Numbered from the stretch's first letter, positions 12,590 to 27,630 are shown. The stretch: DNA of 32,000 nucleotides from an uncultured archaeon (GCA_964373795.1 CAYJVY010000004.1:79944-111943); one strand, 5' to 3'. Program-made: numbers and translations. The notes: a model not told the origin generated them from the letters alone.

Positions 12590-14071
12590 ATGGAAACAAA
12601 GTGGTTATTTGTAGAGGAAATTCCAAATTCACACCCATTTGTTTTGGAGGGCGTGTGGAGATTTATTTCAACAAAATTTGAAAAAGAATACTCTGGAAAA
12701 ATTTCTACTGCTCTGGCTTTTGAGAAAGGAACCTCGTACCTTTACATTAATTCTGCTGATTGGAAAAGAGCAGGGAAAAGCGTATTTGCAAAAGTTGTTT
12801 CGGATCCTAATTGGATGCTGGAGAAAAACAAAACTAATGAAGAAATACAAACAAGGCTGTACACTTTATATTCAGAAATTGGGAAAAAGCCAGTATCAAA
12901 ACTTTCAACTTCTGAGCTTCTTGATTTGTTGCAGAACTGGTTAGACGAATATGAATTAGGAATCTCTATCGGCTGGATTGACATGGCAATGGAATTCCCA
13001 CACGAATTACTGTCAAACTATCTAAAAGATTATTTGAAGAAAAAAATTCATGAACAAAAATTAAGATATCATGAGTCAGAATTATTTACTGTTTTTTCAA
13101 CTCCTGTTAGAGAAACTTGGGCAAAAAGAGAAGAAAAAAGTTTACTAAAGATTTGTTTGGAAATAAAGAATAAATATGATTCAGTTGACTTGAATACTCT
13201 TAAGTCTTTGGAAGAGCATTTTCAAAAATTCAAATGGTTGTCCTACATGTACGTTGGCCCGGCACAGGAAAAATCATATTACATTGACTTAATACATGAA
13301 CTTTTTTCGGAGAATTTGGATTTTGAAGGTAAATTAAAAAGATTGGAAAACGAAGGTAAAGAGTTTGAAAAGAAAAAGCATAAATACTTGAATGAACTGC
13401 AGGCTGATGAAACGCATAAAAAATTGTTGCAAATAGCTGAAAACCTTGTCTGGTTAAAGGATTATAGAAAAAACCAAATTTTGTTCAGTTTTTATTCAGT
13501 TGAAAAATTGTTAAAAGAAATATCAAAGAGATTTGGTTTATCCCTAAACCAGTTAAGGTTTGTCACACCTTTTGAAGCTAAAAAATATTTACAATCAAAC
13601 TTTTCTCCTGAAGAATTGAACACTAGATACAATGCATGTGTTTATTTGTTTGACAAAGGAACAAACAGCTTTTATGTTGGAGAAGAAGCTAAAAAATTCC
13701 ATGAATCAATTAAGCCTAAAGAAACTTTTGACCTTAGTGTAACTGTGTTGCGTGGAAGTACTGCTGTTCCTGGCAAGGTAAAAGGCAGGATAAAATTAGT
13801 TATTCTGCCAAAAGATATGCCTAAGATGAATCAAGGCGATATTTTGGTTGCACATGCAACAAATCCCGACGTAGTTCCTGCAATGAAAAAAGCTGCGGCA
13901 ATAATTGCTGATGTGGGTGGATTGACATGTCATGCTGCAATTGTTTCAAGAGAAATGGGAACTCCATGCATTGTAGGAACAAAATATGCAACAAAACTAC
14001 TCAAAGACAACGACTTAGTAGAAGTGGATGCAACTAACGGAGTTATAAGAATTCTGAAAAAAGCAAAATAG
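12590..14071 (+). CDS. PEP-utilising enzyme mobile (swivel phosphohistidine) domain protein with an unassigned 380-aa N-terminal region
   Basis: The C-terminus is GDILVAHATNPDVVPAMKKAAAIIADVGGLTCHAAIVSREMGTPCIVG. No ATP-grasp or PEP/pyruvate barrel motif was seen. Confidence 0.8.
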   Translation: METKWLFVEEIPNSHPFVLEGVWRFISTKFEKEYSGKISTALAFEKGTSYLYINSADWKRAGKSVFAKVVSDPNWMLEKNKTNEEIQTRLYTLYSEIGKKPVSKLSTSELLDLLQNWLDEYELGISIGWIDMAMEFPHELLSNYLKDYLKKKIHEQKLRYHESELFTVFSTPVRETWAKREEKSLLKICLEIKNKYDSVDLNTLKSLEEHFQKFKWLSYMYVGPAQEKSYYIDLIHELFSENLDFEGKLKRLENEGKEFEKKKHKYLNELQADETHKKLLQIAENLVWLKDYRKNQILFSFYSVEKLLKEISKRFGLSLNQLRFVTPFEAKKYLQSNFSPEELNTRYNACVYLFDKGTNSFYVGEEAKKFHESIKPKETFDLSVTVLRGSTAVPGKVKGRIKLVILPKDMPKMNQGDILVAHATNPDVVPAMKKAAAIIADVGGLTCHAAIVSREMGTPCIVGTKYATKLLKDNDLVEVDATNGVIRILKKAK

Positions 14072-15425: not shown

Positions 15426-16877
15426 ATGACTGATTGGATTATTTTTGCTCGCTGGAATGCACTGCCTTTAGATAATTCAGAATTTGCAGATAAGTATTAT
15501 CAAAACGAATTTAAAAAAATTATTGGCACCAGTTTTACTTGCTTTGATGCAATAGTGGATGGTGCATCCAATAGATATAATCCTAAAGCTGAAGCAAATG
15601 AACTTTTTTCAATTTCTTTATCCAAACTAGAAGAAGAAAACTTTTTTGAATCTCATTTAGAAAGGTACGAATTATCTGCACAAAATATAAGGGACTTCTT
15701 GAAAGAATCTAGTTTAATTGATTTCCCAAAATTATCTTTTACTGAGCTATATGATTTGTTTAAAGAATCTGTCAAATTGAATTCTGTTGTTAATGCTTAC
15801 ACTAATGTGTTTTATTTTATTGGAATGTGTTTTGGAAAAGAACTTAAAAACTACTTATCTGAAGAGCTTAAGGATGAGAAAAAAGCTAATGAGTATTTTA
15901 TTGCCCTACAAAAACCAATTAAAGATACTATTTTAACTAAGGAGAAAAATGCCTTGAAAAAAATTCTTGAAAAAGCTTTATTTGGTAATCCTGAATTACA
16001 AAATAAGGAAAGCTCGTATGATTTTCTTTTTTCTTTGCCAAATATTCAGCAAGACTTGGAAAAACATAGAGAAGAATTTTCTTGGATTCCTACACTGACT
16101 GGTGCGCCTCCATGGACTAAAAGAGATTTTGTTAATGAAATGATTGAATTACTCAAAACACCTAAAAAAGCAGAACATGAAACTATTGAAATAGATTTAG
16201 AATTGCCTGAAAAAATTAAAAAAATAATTAATTTCTTGAAAATTGCGGCATACATTAAAGATGATGTAGAGGCTCTTTATTCTTATAAAAACTTTACTTT
16301 TAGAAGGAAATTCTTAGAGGAATTAAGTAAAAGATTTTTTATTGATATTAATTCTTTAAGGTTATTCACACAAGATGAATTGCTGTCTTTATTAAAGGAG
16401 CAAAAAATTGATGAAAGTATTTTGAATTTAAGGAAAAAGTTTTGGACATTATATGCTGATGGCAGCTCACTACATATCATTACAGGAAAAGCAGCTCTTA
16501 TTCTAAAGAATTCCATAATAAAGGAAGAAGAAATCGATTTTTCCATTAGTGAACTAAAAGGTTTAACTGGTTCAGTGGGAAAAATAAGTGGAAGAGTAAA
16601 AATTTTAATGAGGGTTGAAGATCTAGATATAGTTCAAAAAGGAGATGTGTTGGTTTCCTTAAATACAATGGTTGACTTTGTTCCTGCAATGAAAAGAGCC
16701 AGTGCAATAATAACTGAAATTGGCGGAATTACTTCTCATGCTGCAATAGTTTCACGTGAATTTGGAATTCCATGCATTACAGATGTAAAAAATGCTACAA
16801 AGATTTTGAAAAATAATGATTTGATAGAGGTTGACGCAAACAACGGAGTTATAAGAATTTTAAAAAAAGCAAAATAA
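15426..16877 (+). CDS. PEP-utilising enzyme mobile domain protein, paralog of 12590..14071
   Basis: RBS is AAGGTGA. The C-terminus is GDVLVSLNTMVDFVPAMKRASAIITEIGGITSHAAIVSREFGIPCITD, and similarity to the paralog runs the full length. Confidence 0.8.
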   Translation: MTDWIIFARWNALPLDNSEFADKYYQNEFKKIIGTSFTCFDAIVDGASNRYNPKAEANELFSISLSKLEEENFFESHLERYELSAQNIRDFLKESSLIDFPKLSFTELYDLFKESVKLNSVVNAYTNVFYFIGMCFGKELKNYLSEELKDEKKANEYFIALQKPIKDTILTKEKNALKKILEKALFGNPELQNKESSYDFLFSLPNIQQDLEKHREEFSWIPTLTGAPPWTKRDFVNEMIELLKTPKKAEHETIEIDLELPEKIKKIINFLKIAAYIKDDVEALYSYKNFTFRRKFLEELSKRFFIDINSLRLFTQDELLSLLKEQKIDESILNLRKKFWTLYADGSSLHIITGKAALILKNSIIKEEEIDFSISELKGLTGSVGKISGRVKILMRVEDLDIVQKGDVLVSLNTMVDFVPAMKRASAIITEIGGITSHAAIVSREFGIPCITDVKNATKILKNNDLIEVDANNGVIRILKKAK

Positions 16878-16897
16878 TTAAGAAAAATTTCTTTTGC

Positions 16898-16928
16898 AAA
16901 CTTTTCTTTTCAAAAGAAAAGTTTTTTT
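16898..16928 (+). terminator. hairpin plus oligo-T terminator-like element
   Basis: AAACTTTTCTTTT-C-AAAAGAAAAGTTT has perfect 13-nt arms followed by a T run, 21 nt after the stop of 15426..16877. Confidence 0.4.
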
Positions 16929-16933
16929 AGAAT

Positions 16934-16982
16934 GGATAGGACGAAAAAAAATTAGTTCAAGCTAGAGCTTGTGAGCCTATCC
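16934..16982. other. GC-enriched nested hairpin of unknown role
   Basis: GGATAGG (16934-40) pairs with CCTATCC (16976-82). The pair encloses the palindrome CAAGCTAGAGCTTG (16958-71). Confidence 0.25.
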
Positions 16983-17164
16983 CATCCACCCTAAAAATCT
17001 TACACGAATTTACTTATAACATAACTCTATAATATTACCATATTTATATATTAAGTAATTTTAAGTATGATATTAAAGATATTCAAAATATTTAAAGTGT
17101 AAAAATCACAACATCAAAAAACTCTTTAATAACGATTTAAAACTGCTTGAAAATTTCATAAGAA

Positions 17165-17268
17165 CTGCAGGGGCACAAAAAAAACCAGTTACGCTTGGTG
17201 GGCTTGCCCCTGGTCTTATTCTTCGGATTGATTTAATTTATTCACTTTGAAGTTATCCCTCCGAGTTG
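17165..17268. ncRNA. candidate small structured RNA (class unknown)
   Basis: CAGGGGCA (17168-75) pairs with TGCCCCTG (17205-12) around an inner CCAG/TTGG hairpin. A second TTCGGA/TCCGAG pairing lies at 17222-27 and 17260-65. 17 of 25 nt are G/C in 17191-17215, within an AT-rich 515-bp spacer. Confidence 0.2.
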
Positions 17269-17395
17269 TTAAACTACAATTATATAGTGTTCCAAGTTTT
17301 TAAGTATTAAGTAAATTTAGGCATTTAAAAATTACATTTAAATAATTTTCTATGTAACATTTAATACATTTAAACTCTGTTTTAAAGGTGTTTTT

Positions 17396-23564: not shown

Positions 23565-25760
23565 ATGGCTTTAATTCAAGCAGATAAAAAAAGAAAGGAA
23601 ATGGCTTTAAAGGTTCAAGAACCTGATCCAACTAATGTTGGAAGAAACATTATTACTTTAGATAGAGCTACAAAGCAATACTTGGTGATTACGTCTGGAG
23701 ACATTGTTGAAATAGAGGGAACAAAGAAAACTGCTGCAGTTGTATGGCCTGCAAGAGCAGAAGATGAAGGCCAAGGAATTATTAGAATGGATAACTTGAT
23801 TAGACATAATTCTGGAGTGGGTTTAGGAGAAAAAGTTGTTGTAAGAAAAGCTGTTTACGGAGAAGCAAAAAAAATTGTTTTAGCTCCAACTCAAGAAGTA
23901 AGAATAATTGCTTCAGGTTATGACAGAATTTTAAAGAAAACATTTATTGGAAGAGCAATGCATAAAGGAGATCATGTATGGATTTCTGTTTTTGGATCAG
24001 GATTTATTTATACTGTTGTAGACACTAATCCAAAAGGAATAGTGAAAATCACTGATTTAACTCAATTTGTTTTAAAAGAAGAACCATTAAAAGAAGCAGA
24101 TGGAGTTGTTTCAAGAATTGCTTATGAAGACATTGGAGGATTAGATGAACCAGTAAGAAAAGTCAGAGAAATGATTGAATTACCTATGAGGCATCCGGAA
24201 TTGTTCCGCAAACTAGGAATTCAACCACCAAAAGGAGTTCTACTTTACGGGCCACCTGGAACAGGAAAAACCCTTCTAGCAAAAGCAGTTGCAAATGAAA
24301 CCAATGCCCACTTTATTTCCATTAACGCTCCAGCAGTAATGAGCAAATTCGTGGGAGAAGCAGAGGAAAGATTGAGGCAAATTTTCAAGGAAGCAGAAGA
24401 AAATGCTCCAACAATTATTTTTATTGACGAAATTGATGCAATTGCTCCAAAAAGAGAAGAAGTAGTAGGAGAAGTTGAAAGAAGAGTTGTAGCACAATTG
24501 CTTGCATTAATGGATGGAATGGAAGCCAGAGGAAATGTAATAGTTATCGCGGCTACAAACCGCGTGAATTCATTAGATGAAGCTTTAAGAAGACCTGGAA
24601 GATTTGATAGAGAAATAGAAATAGGGGTTCCAGACAAGCAAGGAAGACTTGAAATACTTCAAATTCATACAAGAGGAATGCCTTTATCAAAAGACATTGA
24701 ATTAGAATACTTTGCTTCAATTACTCATGGATTTGTTGGAGCAGATATTGAAGCATTAGCAAAAGAAGCTGCAATGAAGGCATTGAGAAGATACCTTCCA
24801 AAAATTAATTTAGAAGACGAAACCATTCCACCAGAAGTATTGGAATCATTAGAAGTAAATAAAAGAGATTTCAATAATGGATTAAAAGATGTACAGCCTT
24901 CAGCTTTAAGAGAAGTAATGGTTGAAGTTCCAAACATTAGATGGAAAGACATTGGAGCATTAGAAGAAATAAAACAAGAATTAAAACAAGTAGTTGAATG
25001 GCCTTTAAAGTTTCCAGATTCATTTAAAAAAATGGGAATCAAACCACCAAAAGGAATCCTATTATATGGCCCGCCTGGCACTGGAAAAACTCTTCTAGCA
25101 AAAGCAGTTGCAACAGAAGCAGAAGCAAATTTTATTTCAATTAAAGGCCCAGAATTATTATCCAAATTTGTAGGAGAATCAGAAAGAGGAGTTAGAAAAA
25201 TTTTCAGAAGAGCTCGCCAAGTCTCTCCAGTAGTTGTATTCTTTGATGAAATAGATTCCATTGCTTCAGTTAGAGGTTCAACAAGCGATTCAGGAGTAGG
25301 AGAAAGAGTAGTAAACCAAATTCTAACAGAATTAGACGGAGTAGAAGAAATGAAAGACGTAATAGTAATTGGAGCAACAAATCGCCCTGACTTAGTCGAT
25401 CCAGGATTGCTTCGCCCTGGAAGAATTGATAAAATAATTCACATTCCAGCTCCAGATGAACAAGGAAGAATTGAAATCTTAAGAGTTCACACTAGAAATG
25501 TTCCATTAGAAGAAGATGTAAACCTAGATGAAATTGCTTTGAAAACAAAGGGTTATAGTGGAGCAGATTTAGCTGGGTTAATAAGAGAAGCAACTCTAAT
25601 GGCTTTAAAAGAATCCAAAATGAAGCCAACAAAGGTTGCAATGAAACACTTTGAAGAAGCATTAAAACAAATCATGCCATCAATTTCTGAAGAAACAGAA
25701 GAAGCATACAAAGAATTCAGAGAAGCAATAAGCAAATTCAAACCAAGCTATGTAGGATAA
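23565..25760 (+). CDS. cdc48: CDC48/VCP-like AAA+ ATPase
   Basis: An N-terminal CDC48_N-like domain is followed by two AAA modules. Each has [15 protein letters not shown] Walker A, a DEID Walker B and second region of homology motifs. Length is 731 aa. Confidence 0.97.
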
Positions 25761-25850: not shown

Positions 25851-26459
25851 TTGATTAATTTAATCAATGGAGAGGTGAAAGATTTGGCTGAATTAATGGA
25901 AGTAATAAAAAAACCGTTTCAAGATATTAAGACTTATGTAATAGGGTTAGTGGTAATGGTTCTATCAATTCTTGTTCTACCAATGTTTGTATTGCAAGGA
26001 TATCTGTTGGAGGTAGCAAGAAGATCAATGAAAGGAAATCATTCAATGCCTGAATGGGGTAATTGGGGAAAACTTTTCATGGACGGATTAATGGCATACA
26101 TAATTTCAGGAGTTTACATTGTAGTGGCATTTGTACTTTTCCTAGTATTGACATTAGTTTTAGGAATAATTAATCCACTTTTAGGATTAGTTGGATTACT
26201 AATTGGAATACTATTATACTTAGTGTTTGCATTAGCAGCAATAGCAGCAGTACTAAGATTTGCTAAAACAGGAGAATTTGTTGGATCATTACTAGCATTT
26301 GGAGAAAACTTTAGAAAAGGAGTTTCAGTTTCAATGATTGTAGCATTAATAATTGGATTAATTCTTCAAATATTGAATATAATTCCACTTATTTTAATGT
26401 TTGGAACTGGAGTAATGATGATAACAGTAATATCAGAAGCATACGGAAAATTAAAGTAA
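25851..26459 (+). CDS. DUF4013-like membrane protein
   Basis: LQGYLLEVARRSMKGNHSMPEWGNWGKLFMDGL followed by 4-5 TM spans is the DUF4013 pattern. The true start may be TTG 25884 or ATG 25896, downstream of GGAGAGGTGA. Confidence 0.65.
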   Translation: MINLINGEVKDLAELMEVIKKPFQDIKTYVIGLVVMVLSILVLPMFVLQGYLLEVARRSMKGNHSMPEWGNWGKLFMDGLMAYIISGVYIVVAFVLFLVLTLVLGIINPLLGLVGLLIGILLYLVFALAAIAAVLRFAKTGEFVGSLLAFGENFRKGVSVSMIVALIIGLILQILNIIPLILMFGTGVMMITVISEAYGKLK

Positions 26460-26472
26460 AACTTTAATTTTC

Positions 26473-26499
26473 TTTTTTTCTATTTCTTTTTTATTTTTT
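26473..26499 (+). terminator. oligo-T termination tracts
   Basis: T7 (26473-79), T6 (26487-92) and T6 (26494-99) lie just after the stop at 26459. Confidence 0.4.
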
Positions 26500-26504
26500 A
26501 AATT

Positions 26505-26665
26505 CAATCCAGCTACTGCCAGTTTATGCCAACCTCAACCAAGTCAACTACTTGGCAAGCAAACGAAGTAAGCATGCTCTGCTGAAAGCAGTGCACGCAT
26601 TCAAGGTCTCGCGCCTTGAACGCAACACCCACATAGGCGCTCAGCTTTACTGGATGAACCGCGAA
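26505..26665. ncRNA. candidate structured RNA or relic element (class unknown)
   Basis: Three strong hairpins lie at 26539-55, 26575-95 and 26597-623. 40 of 70 nt are G/C in 26571-26640, against AT-rich flanks. It sits between convergent 3' ends. Confidence 0.3.
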
Positions 26666-27271
26666 TTAGAGTCTTAAAGTTAAAAAAACAAACACTAATG
26701 GAAAAAATACTACTGCCCATACAAGAATATTCCAAGTGAAAACCTTGGAACCATCCAATGGATAAATTGGAATCAAATTAAATAAAGCCAAAAAAATGTT
26801 TATTGATACAGTGAACTTTAAAACAGTTTCAATTATTACTGGAACAGGAAATAAAACAAGTGATAATAAGTAAAACACTATTGCAATTAATACATTAGCC
26901 ATTGGCCCTGCTAAAGAAATTAATCCATTTTTTTTATTGTCAATGTCTCTTCCAAAAATATAAACAGCTCCAGGAGCAGCAAAAACCCATCCAAATAAAG
27001 CCATTACTAATGCAAAAATCAATCCAGTAGTCCAAGCCCTATACTCTGCTTTTGCTCCAAAATTAATTGCAACATATTTATGCGCTAATTCATGCAAAAT
27101 AAATCCAGTTCCAACAGCAATAGCTGTAATAATAAAGGCTGAAACAAAGTCAAGAATATTAAGCAAGTCAAAGCTAACCCAAGCAAATGCTACACTAATT
27201 GTAAGCCATGAAACAATTATGTCAATTAATTCCTTTTTATGCAGCTTCATTAAACCCATATTAAAAAACAA
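26666..27271 (-). CDS. M50 family site-2 protease-like zinc metalloprotease
   Basis: It has HELAH (HExxH) in a TM segment, NLIPIYPLDGSKV (NxxPxxxLDG) and a polytopic membrane profile. Confidence 0.85.
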   Translation of the reverse strand: MFFNMGLMKLHKKELIDIIVSWLTISVAFAWVSFDLLNILDFVSAFIITAIAVGTGFILHELAHKYVAINFGAKAEYRAWTTGLIFALVMALFGWVFAAPGAVYIFGRDIDNKKNGLISLAGPMANVLIAIVFYLLSLVLFPVPVIIETVLKFTVSINIFLALFNLIPIYPLDGSKVFTWNILVWAVVFFPLVFVFLTLRL

Positions 27272-27337: not shown

Positions 27338-27360
27338 CTCAAGCGAAATCAATTACATTG

Positions 27361-27442
27361 CCGTCACGCGCTGCAAATGCAAGGGCATGTGTAGGTCTTC
27401 AGCCACTCCAACTGCGTTGGCACACGCTCGCCGCGTGCTCGG
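27361..27442 (+). promoter_or_regulatory. GC-rich structured 5' leader candidate upstream of the first pilin gene
   Basis: 52 of 82 nt are G/C. The outer stem is CCGTCACGCG (27361-70) with CGCGTGCTCGG (27432-42), and the inner hairpin is CCAAC-TGC-GTTGG (27408-20). The element ends 5 nt before the AGGAGG RBS. Confidence 0.35.
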
Positions 27443-27459
27443 TGAAAGGAGGAATTAAA

Positions 27460-27630
27460 TTGGATGAAAAAGCCCAAGTATCAATTGAATTAATTGTTGT
27501 ACTAGCAGCAGTTGTTGCAATTGTTTTACTTTTAGTAGGACAATTACAGGAAACAAGCAAGGAAGGAGTGAAAGAATTTGATGAAACAACTAGTGAAGTT
27601 TTTAAGGAAATCAAAAAAATCAATTCATAG
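27460..27630 (+). CDS. class III signal peptide (archaeal type IV pilin-like) small protein
   Basis: TTG lies 6-7 nt after AGGAGG. The sequence DEKAQVSIELIVVLAAVVAIVLLLVG has a charged leader, Q, then a hydrophobic helix. The tracked ORF's GC-rich 34-codon extension was rejected. Confidence 0.65.
   Translation: MDEKAQVSIELIVVLAAVVAIVLLLVGQLQETSKEGVKEFDETTSEVFKEIKKINS

Follow-up and report, generated by a model that had tools for sequence, protein, structure and literature searches.

A GC-rich hairpin island beside an M50 peptidase gene of an uncultured DPANN archaeon, with two probable diverged copies nearby

We describe a GC-rich, hairpin-forming island (I1) situated directly downstream of a peptidase M50 gene in a 32-kb stretch of archaeal DNA (the window), whose host is a Diapherotrites/Iainarchaeota-like DPANN archaeon without close relative in databases. 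I1 seems to belong to a hairpin element specific to this lineage, and to be the largest of its copies, which number at least three and have diverged from one another. The explanation that we favour, though with slightly less than even confidence, is that I1 is a lineage-specific insertion of a dispersed GC-rich hairpin element, which most likely lies within the 3' untranslated region (UTR) of the M50 mRNA and acts in cis. A stand-alone RNA gene of the classical type is unlikely. For this analysis the sequence was lengthened with Logan contigs (L043 and L045) by 7.5 kb to the left and 6.8 kb to the right of the window, which gives 46 kb of genome.

The G+C content of the segment 26505-26665 is 0.509, against about 30% in the genome background, 0.089 in the T-rich stretch beside it (26460-26504) and 0.25 in other intergenic DNA; 40 of the 70 nucleotides at 26571-26640 are G or C. 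The claim of the original prediction that this segment is far richer in G+C than its flanks was therefore correct. Across the 32 kb, 160-nt segments have a mean G+C of 0.297 (sd 0.047), the highest value is that of I1, and only two of all such segments match it, each of them overlapping I1. The island occupies most of a 206-bp gap between the convergent DUF4013 and M50 genes (Table 1), as had been reported, the start of M50 in its database entry being the ATG at 27259. The terminator-like signal of DUF4013 is outside the hairpin element and marks the left boundary of I1. Inspection of the sequence revealed no oligo-T run after I1 on either strand, in agreement with the earlier observation, and no AT-rich spacer of promoter size between the M50 stop codon and the island. 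Taking into account the distance of 5 nt from this stop codon and the lack of both signals, I1 most likely constitutes the 3' UTR of M50. A Logan assembly made independently from this sample has the identical I1 sequence, and a second run, ERR4904391, contains the same population at 100% identity, as seen at loci other than I1. A separate observation is a seven-T run on the minus strand (26682-26688) inside the last M50 codons (GTT TTT TTA), 14-20 nt ahead of the stop; it looks like an archaeal oligo-T terminator situated upstream of the ORF end.

Table 1. Coordinates of the GC-rich islands, their predicted structural parts and adjoining features (window positions unless a contig is named)
Feature	Position	Strand	Description
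DUF4013 gene (PF13197)	stop 26459	+	convergent with M50; left neighbour of I1
Terminator-like signal of DUF4013	26446-26499	+	perfect 12-bp inverted repeat over the stop codon, followed by T-runs
Island I1, whole element	26501-26660	-	begins 5 nt past the M50 stop codon
P1, 3' strand	26501-26518	-	CAGU, A, GCUGGA, U, UGAAUU
Hairpin d	26528-26573	-	H1 is its tip; two lower stems requiring G-U
Hairpin c (H2)	26574-26596	-	GUGC-A-CUGCU-UUC-AGCAG-A-GCAU
Hairpin b (H3)	26597-26623	-	10-bp stem, loop CGCGAGA at 26613-26607; conserved family core
Hairpin a	26624-26641	-	AGCGCCU-AUGU-GGGUGUU, 7 bp (3 G-U), mean pair probability 0.95; minus strand only
Conserved GCTGA block of I1	26645-26641	-	within the P1 5' strand
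P1, 5' strand	26642-26660	-	GGUUCA, UCCAGU, AAA, GCUG; pair probabilities 0.83/0.99/0.85
Peptidase M50 gene (PF02163, site-2 protease)	26666-27271	-	I1 lies directly 3' on the same strand
Island I2	27355-27445	-	60% G+C; flanked by M50 and the pilin-like gene, which diverge; probable partial paralogue
I2 hairpin	27376-27358	-	loop CGCGTGA at 27370-27364; GCTGA at 27403-27399
Island I3	L045 1-113	window minus strand	61% G+C, locally up to 70%; about 6.8 kb past the right edge of the window

The minus strand of I1, i.e. the sense strand of M50, is predicted to fold at -66.3 kcal/mol, with z = -3.46 from the folding tool and z = -3.74 relative to separately made dinucleotide shuffles. The latter value lies beyond those of all 182 background windows, in which the two strands gave a mean z of -0.38 (sd 0.99, minimum -2.9). 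The plus strand reaches -44.4 kcal/mol (z = -1.65), which is slightly better than its shuffles. The architecture predicted for the minus strand is a five-way junction with 59 bp, G-U pairs accounting for 13, built of a 16-bp closing helix P1 in three segments and of hairpins a, b, c and d; the ensemble is well defined, the pair probabilities of its helices ranging from 0.76 to 1.00. P1 includes two bulges, and four of its 16 pairs are G-U. Since P1, hairpin a and the lower stems of hairpin d require G-U pairs, they are formed on the minus strand only, and were invisible in the original prediction, which described three hairpins as read on the plus strand. These three are all present, with coordinates and sequences exactly as given: H1, CCAAGT-CAACT-ACTTGG (26539-26555); H2, TGCTCTGC-TGAAA-GCAGTGCA (26575-26595, one T/T mismatch); and H3, GCATTCAAGG-TCTCGCG-CCTTGAACGC (26597-26623, one A/C mismatch, which is G-U on the minus strand). 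P1, one further hairpin and the lower stem below H1 had been overlooked. The suggestion that such an island is a structured RNA gene is plausible as to a structured RNA, since the minus strand outfolds its shuffles and every background window; its second half, a classical RNA gene, is unsupported by the evidence presented below.

Comparison with known RNA families gave no assignment. At gathering score, Rfam 15 had no match in the window or in contigs L043 and L045, and at E<=10 nothing was found over the GC core of I1 on either strand (weak noise from snoRNA models occurred outside it only). Searches at E<=10 with each of the three islands yielded nothing useful; a sub-threshold match of I3 to chrB-a has 22 bits (threshold 43.9) and E=0.047. 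ARAGORN predicted no tRNA or tmRNA gene with default settings, whether or not introns were allowed, and when its threshold was relaxed it produced dozens of matches across the whole window, i.e. noise. It may be added that the 46 kb of genome (window, L043 and L045) contain no detected tRNA, rRNA or Rfam family. The original prediction had likewise found no fit of I1 to tRNA, 5S rRNA, SRP RNA helix 8 or group II intron domain V.

Manual fits also failed on the defining features of tRNA (including permuted and split forms), 5S rRNA, SRP helix 8, C/D box and H/ACA RNAs, K-turn/K-loop, hammerhead, BHB and attC. No tRNA cloverleaf, with its 7-bp acceptor stem, D arm, anticodon arm and T arm (loop GTTCRANNC), can be drawn, only an isolated T-arm-like hairpin without the 5' strand of an acceptor. 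5S rRNA is a three-way junction of about 120 nt with conserved loops C and E and a match to RF00001, and I1 is a predicted five-way junction of about 160 nt with no Rfam match at E<=10 on either strand. An integron attC site was rejected since the ends of the element have no RYYYAAC...GTTRRRY pair and no integrase was found; furthermore, M50 is syntenic with Cdc48 in relatives and is therefore not an integron cassette.

A divergent tRNA (intron-containing, split or permuted), 5S rRNA or other known RNA is in our opinion highly improbable, and this reading is already largely refuted. It could draw on the T-arm-like UUGCG-UUCAAGG-CGCGA on the minus strand of I1 (the same hairpin that ARAGORN picks at a 70% threshold), an anticodon-loop-like CUUUCAG in I1, the resemblance of CGAAGUAAGC and UACUGG on the plus strand to 5S motifs, and a tRNA-Lys gene that one relative has where I3 lies here. 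However, besides the empty ARAGORN result at default settings, Rfam returned no match to tRNA, 5S, SRP or RNase P RNA at E<=10, and the T-arm-like hairpin, which lacks a matching acceptor strand, is mutually exclusive with the far stabler 10-bp hairpin b.

The probability that I1 is a small protein-coding gene or its decayed remnant is close to negligible. Two long open frames do cross the island, namely a 41-aa plus-strand ORF (26552-26677) and a 50-codon frame that continues M50 beyond its stop, but stop-free frames are to be expected at 51% GC, and Pfam was empty for both. When the frames were compared with 1.84 billion representative proteins, the minus frame matched only a spurious multi-repeat plant LRR protein and the plus frame had no word-sharing candidate. 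Homologues of M50 stop where M50 stops here, which rules out a C-terminal extension of this protein and makes the in-frame continuation past its stop a coincidence. The decayed coding fragment that the original prediction had considered thus finds no support in either Pfam or protein homology searches.

In six related loci only 0-14 bp separate M50 from a Cdc48 or a DUF4013(-like) gene, and the island is absent; these M50 proteins are distant (55-63% identity to the one studied here), the value of 63% being that of the top non-self match. No GC island was found at the positions of I2 and I3 in the relatives examined, among them three NurA loci. I1 was therefore either inserted in the host lineage or lost in all the others. 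The original prediction had taken absence from the syntenic site in close relatives as evidence against its proposal, and by that measure, at the distance of 55-63% M50 identity, I1 is not a conserved RNA gene. Two other features of the related loci were recorded. Upstream of NurA in one relative (59% NurA identity), at the position of I3, lies a tRNA-Lys(UUU) gene (L085 2313-2388), which is followed by two direct repeats of AGTTAGGCACTACA. The Cdc48 homologue of a relative (L006 4235-6603) carries an intein (Intein_splicing and LAGLIDADG_3), and the Cdc48 gene of the window (23565-25760, 731 aa) has none.

Searches elsewhere were likewise negative. BLASTN against phages and plasmids gave only chance matches of 24-32 nt. 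Scans with exact or degenerate patterns, by which near-identical motifs alone are detectable, gave only chance matches in viral contigs, in representative prokaryotic genomes (the source genome not being among them) and in JGI metagenomes. We consider the pattern matches to be due to chance because they lie in contigs of 39-65% G+C, show no local GC contrast and are not AT-rich and DPANN-like. No transposase, integrase or TnpB is encoded by any of 30 ORFs in the window, nor did the flanking contigs of the 46 kb show one.

Two further GC-rich islands were found in the lengthened sequence. I2 is followed by a pilin-like gene (class III signal peptide MDEKAQVSIE, TTG start at 27460, GGAGG ahead), and its orientation is ambiguous: there is no room for an AT-rich promoter between I2 and the pilin start, so that I2 must also be read as a plus-strand 5' leader of the pilin gene. 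I3 is incomplete, as the Logan contig ends inside it. It lies directly upstream of NurA, the first gene of the row NurA / 227-aa ORF / DUF87 (HerA-like), and ends at most 14 nt before the NurA ATG (L045 114), a start codon confirmed by the lengths and aligned N-termini of homologues. An SD-like GGAG, 12 nt ahead of this ATG, is located inside the closing helix of I3. The NCBI annotation of NurA (P0122, L045 39-1238) begins at a GTG within I3 and gives a protein of 399 aa, compared with 361-368 aa in most close homologues and 363-368 aa in the closest; this start was likely mis-called owing to the stop-free GC island. Folds of I2 and of the truncated I3 are no better than those of their shuffles, and no complementarity between I1 and I2 that could form a processing stem around M50 was found.

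Several lines of evidence connect the three islands. I1 and I3 share 20 6-mers, compared with 9.4±4.1 in natural GC-matched control sequences (17 of the shared ones in one orientation, p=0.004), and I2 and I3 share 19, compared with 6.8±3.3 (p=0.001); the 7 shared by I1 and I2 do not differ significantly from their controls (7.7±3.7). Gapped alignment against 1000 dinucleotide shuffles repeated this pattern, with p=0.004 for I1-I3, p=0.011 for I2-I3 and no significance for I1-I2, and nhmmer with I3 as the query matched I2 (E=0.017) and not I1. On the minus strand all three islands have a common layout: GCTGA, a spacing of 26-28 nt, and a hairpin with the loop CGCG[A/T]GA(C). The motif CGCGNGA is found at four places in the 46 kb: three are the stem-flanked hairpin loops of the islands, and the fourth, without a stem, is in the coding sequence of Cdc48.

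The stems that carry these loops are wholly different in sequence (UUCAAGG/CCUUGAA in I1, UUGC(C)/G(G)CAR in I2 and I3), and four stem pairs of the core hairpin are altered on both sides between I1 and I2/I3. In the three-sequence alignment, with a structure taken from I1 and shared blocks chosen post hoc, pairs are formed in 89.5% of cells, as opposed to 13-53% when the partners are slid by 1-3 columns. Covariation as high as that observed arose in 10 of 500 shuffles, a value to be read in the light of a family of three sequences from one genome, in which the stems of I2 and I3 are not mutually independent. If an alternative gapped alignment is used, with the TTGAATG of I1 and I3 matched, the column-wise covariation is gone, but the loop of each copy is still stemmed. 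As for the rest of the predicted structure, I3 retains eight of the ten inner P1 pairs, via one-sided changes only, the outer half of P1 is not kept, and hairpins c and d are missing from I3. Since I2 and the truncated I3 do not outfold their shuffles, the predictions show no stable fold common to the copies other than a single hairpin and a portion of one helix. The copies are about 55-60% identical to each other. Despite this divergence of about 40% their G+C stays at 50-61% in a genome of 30% GC, a hint that structure is under selection.

The finding of two probable paralogues that share a covarying hairpin favours a dispersed family over a unique gene or a random relic of foreign DNA, which were among the readings considered in the original prediction. 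We regard it as distinctly unlikely that I1 is an inert relic of higher-GC foreign DNA, whose hairpins and likeness to I2 and I3 arose by chance. Such an origin would agree with its lineage specificity, its alien composition and the lack of homologues in the searched collections, and the family statistics are modest (p 0.001-0.02), with elements chosen post hoc. On the other hand, the z value of the I1 fold is outside the entire background distribution, three independent similarity tests agree, and chance would have to account for the loop, the flanking stems and the constant GCTGA spacing common to the three islands.

Absence from relatives, modular copies of variable length and the location of three copies on one DNA strand within 46 kb could also be explained by a selfish element that acts at the DNA level, with no RNA role: a non-autonomous palindromic transposon (a MITE, or a REP/PATE-like element derived from IS200/IS605 and mobilised in single-stranded form by a transposase whose gene lies elsewhere), or palindromes bound as DNA by a protein. 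Same-strand copies are expected of elements that transpose as single-stranded DNA, and Y1 transposases recognise hairpins with a conserved loop and a variable stem, as seen in the islands. Moreover, the ends of I1 form an imperfect inverted repeat, TAATTC is found at the 5' edge of I1 and I2 alike, and a Logan contig breaks inside I3. Nevertheless we consider this origin unlikely. The copies are old and diverged, and the Logan contigs run unbroken through I1 and I2, from which we infer that the sample holds no near-identical copy. Four of the 16 P1 pairs, being G-U, are mismatches in a DNA inverted repeat; no transposase is encoded within the 46 kb; and high G+C has been kept under AT pressure. 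There is no clear target-site duplication, the sole candidate being an AT-rich 11-mer. This candidate consists of near-identical 11-mers at 26451-26461 and 26674-26684 (TTAAAGTAAAA / TTAAAGTTAAA), which bracket the 206-bp gap, one over the DUF4013 stop and the other over the last M50 codons. The pair may be a target-site duplication or a coincidence in AT-rich sequence; the latter is favoured by the fact that restoring the pre-insertion state would make M50 about 25 aa longer.

Another reading is that I1 is a stand-alone gene, or a member of a small family, for a novel trans-acting structured small RNA made from the minus strand, either from its own promoter or by processing of the M50 transcript. 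In 2002 Klein, Misulovin and Eddy reportedly described GC-rich islands in AT-rich archaeal genomes, a classic signature of structural RNA genes, and I1 fits it. Its fold is well defined and strand-specific, the conserved loop and covarying stem suggest a hairpin under selection, G+C held at 50-61% through about 40% divergence would argue against neutral decay, and a TTTTTTTAA run is situated about 25 nt upstream of the start of the helix. We nonetheless judge such a gene to be an improbable solution. I1 has no T-run terminator, and TATA-like matches are uninformative within flanks of 25% GC. I3 abuts the NurA start codon and leaves space for neither terminator nor promoter, I2 and I3 have no stable overall fold, and the island is conserved neither at the syntenic site nor elsewhere in the collections searched.

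The scenario that we tentatively prefer, that of a dispersed hairpin element residing in UTRs, would begin with a lineage-specific insertion of I1 downstream of M50. The island would then be transcribed with the M50 mRNA as its 3' UTR, and, by analogy with Rickettsia palindromic elements and bacterial REP/BIME, which are proposed to work in this manner, the five-way junction might act in cis as a barrier at the 3' end, as a stabiliser or as a protein-binding structure. I3, since it abuts the NurA start and leaves no room for an AT-rich promoter, is most simply read as a 5' leader of the mRNA, in whose closing helix the SD-like GGAG would be held. A more ambitious version, which we put forward as a doubtful one, is that the islands represent an undescribed class of archaeal UTR-embedded RNA. 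In that case the CGCG[A/U]GA hairpin and GCUGA would bind a dedicated RNA-binding protein or nuclease, serving as a processing signal or defining a small post-transcriptional regulon (M50, the NurA-HerA repair operon and the pilin gene), and the high G+C would be selected against AT drift.

Other structured or repeated sequences were observed in the window. An unusually long intergenic gap (16878-17395, 519 bp) contains two GC-richer hairpins of like design, composed of an outer stem, eight consecutive A residues, (TT/CC)AGTT and an inner hairpin. The first (about 16932-16992) has the stem GGATAGG...CCTATCC and the second (about 17168-17213) CAGGGGCA...TGCCCCTG. Rfam and tRNA searches with these hairpins gave no match, and they may be another small repeat or a pair of sRNAs. 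In addition, two paralogous ORFs of about 490 aa (12590-14071 and 15426-16877), in which only a C-terminal PEP-utilising mobile domain is recognisable, have two small ORFs between them.

The genomes of DPANN archaea are tiny, streamlined and AT-rich, and to our knowledge almost nothing is known of their non-coding DNA; nor do we know of any REP/RPE-like selfish element described in this group. If the family is real and is maintained at gene boundaries, it could be an undescribed element of this kind and a marker of the genome dynamics of episymbionts or, alternatively, a new cis-acting RNA structure controlling mRNA ends. GC islands of this type also mislead gene callers, as at the NurA start (P0122), and screens that equate a GC island with an RNA gene.

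Among known systems, the archaeal non-coding RNA genes (HgcC/E/F/G, C/D and H/ACA sRNAs) resemble I1 in being GC islands in AT-rich intergenic DNA with a stable fold. In contrast to them, I1 has no Rfam match and no terminator, abuts an ORF and is absent in relatives, and neither C/D boxes in the right order nor an ACA box or pocket architecture was found in it. Archaeal termination is normally driven by oligo-T. In bacteria, clusters of hairpins past stop codons act as intrinsic terminators (PMC8355165). I1 is comparable to these in that it consists of adjacent hairpins right after a stop codon, rather than of a single hairpin with a U-tract; it differs in being archaeal, and no oligo-T follows it.

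MITEs and non-autonomous elements of the IS200-IS605 type share with I1 the small size, lack of ORFs, lineage specificity, complementarity of the ends, hairpins and confinement to one strand. Unlike MITEs, I1 has no convincing terminal inverted repeat at the DNA level, given the G-U pairs of P1, and in the 46 kb neither a clear target-site duplication nor near-identical copies nor a partner transposase was seen. The direct repeat flanking I1 is AT-rich (11-mer, 10/11 identity), with 40 nt between it and the GC island on one side.

A closer parallel is provided by the Rickettsia palindromic elements (RPEs), reportedly described by Ogata et al. in 2000. As with RPEs, we are dealing with a palindromic insertion of 100-150 bp at gene boundaries in the small AT-rich genome of a host-dependent organism, with diverged copies, a stable hairpin-like RNA and no associated transposase. 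RPEs are often located in frame inside genes and are present in dozens of copies, and they have no sequence similarity to I1-I3. RPE-4 and RPE-6 have been linked to REPs with the CGTC tag (PMC3733652).

REPs and BIMEs are GC-rich palindromes tagged with GTAG or CGTC, which are intergenic, mostly placed just past ORFs and between convergent or co-directional genes; the REP units of bacteria measure 20-40 bp, with stems of 8-9 bp and loops of 4-5 nt, and occur in tens to hundreds of copies that are highly similar within a family (PMC3733652). Proposed roles are stabilisation of the mRNA 3' end or termination, and a function in the transcript is suggested by G-T/G-U pairing within the stems (PMC3733652). 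I1 is similar in its GC-rich hairpins, its place 5 nt past the M50 stop between convergent genes and the G-U pairs of its stems, and the copies, as in BIMEs, are able to combine into larger folds. The differences are that I2 and I3 are upstream of genes, that the four hairpins of I1 are mutually unrelated, that the conserved part is a 7-nt loop and not a stem, and that three diverged copies were seen in 46 kb of an archaeal host. The mark of a REP is a GTAG or CGTC tag left unpaired at one end of the imperfect palindrome and, for the GTAG types, an associated RAYT transposase. I3 has CGTC 1 nt before an 8-bp palindrome (minus strand of L045), in I2 CGTC is within the conserved hairpin, and I1 has GGTC in the loop at the equivalent place and two GTAGs that are not at hairpin feet. 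I1 can be assigned to no known family; without clearly displaying the features that define them, it is, judged by these analogies, most like the palindromic elements of the REP/BIME or RPE type.
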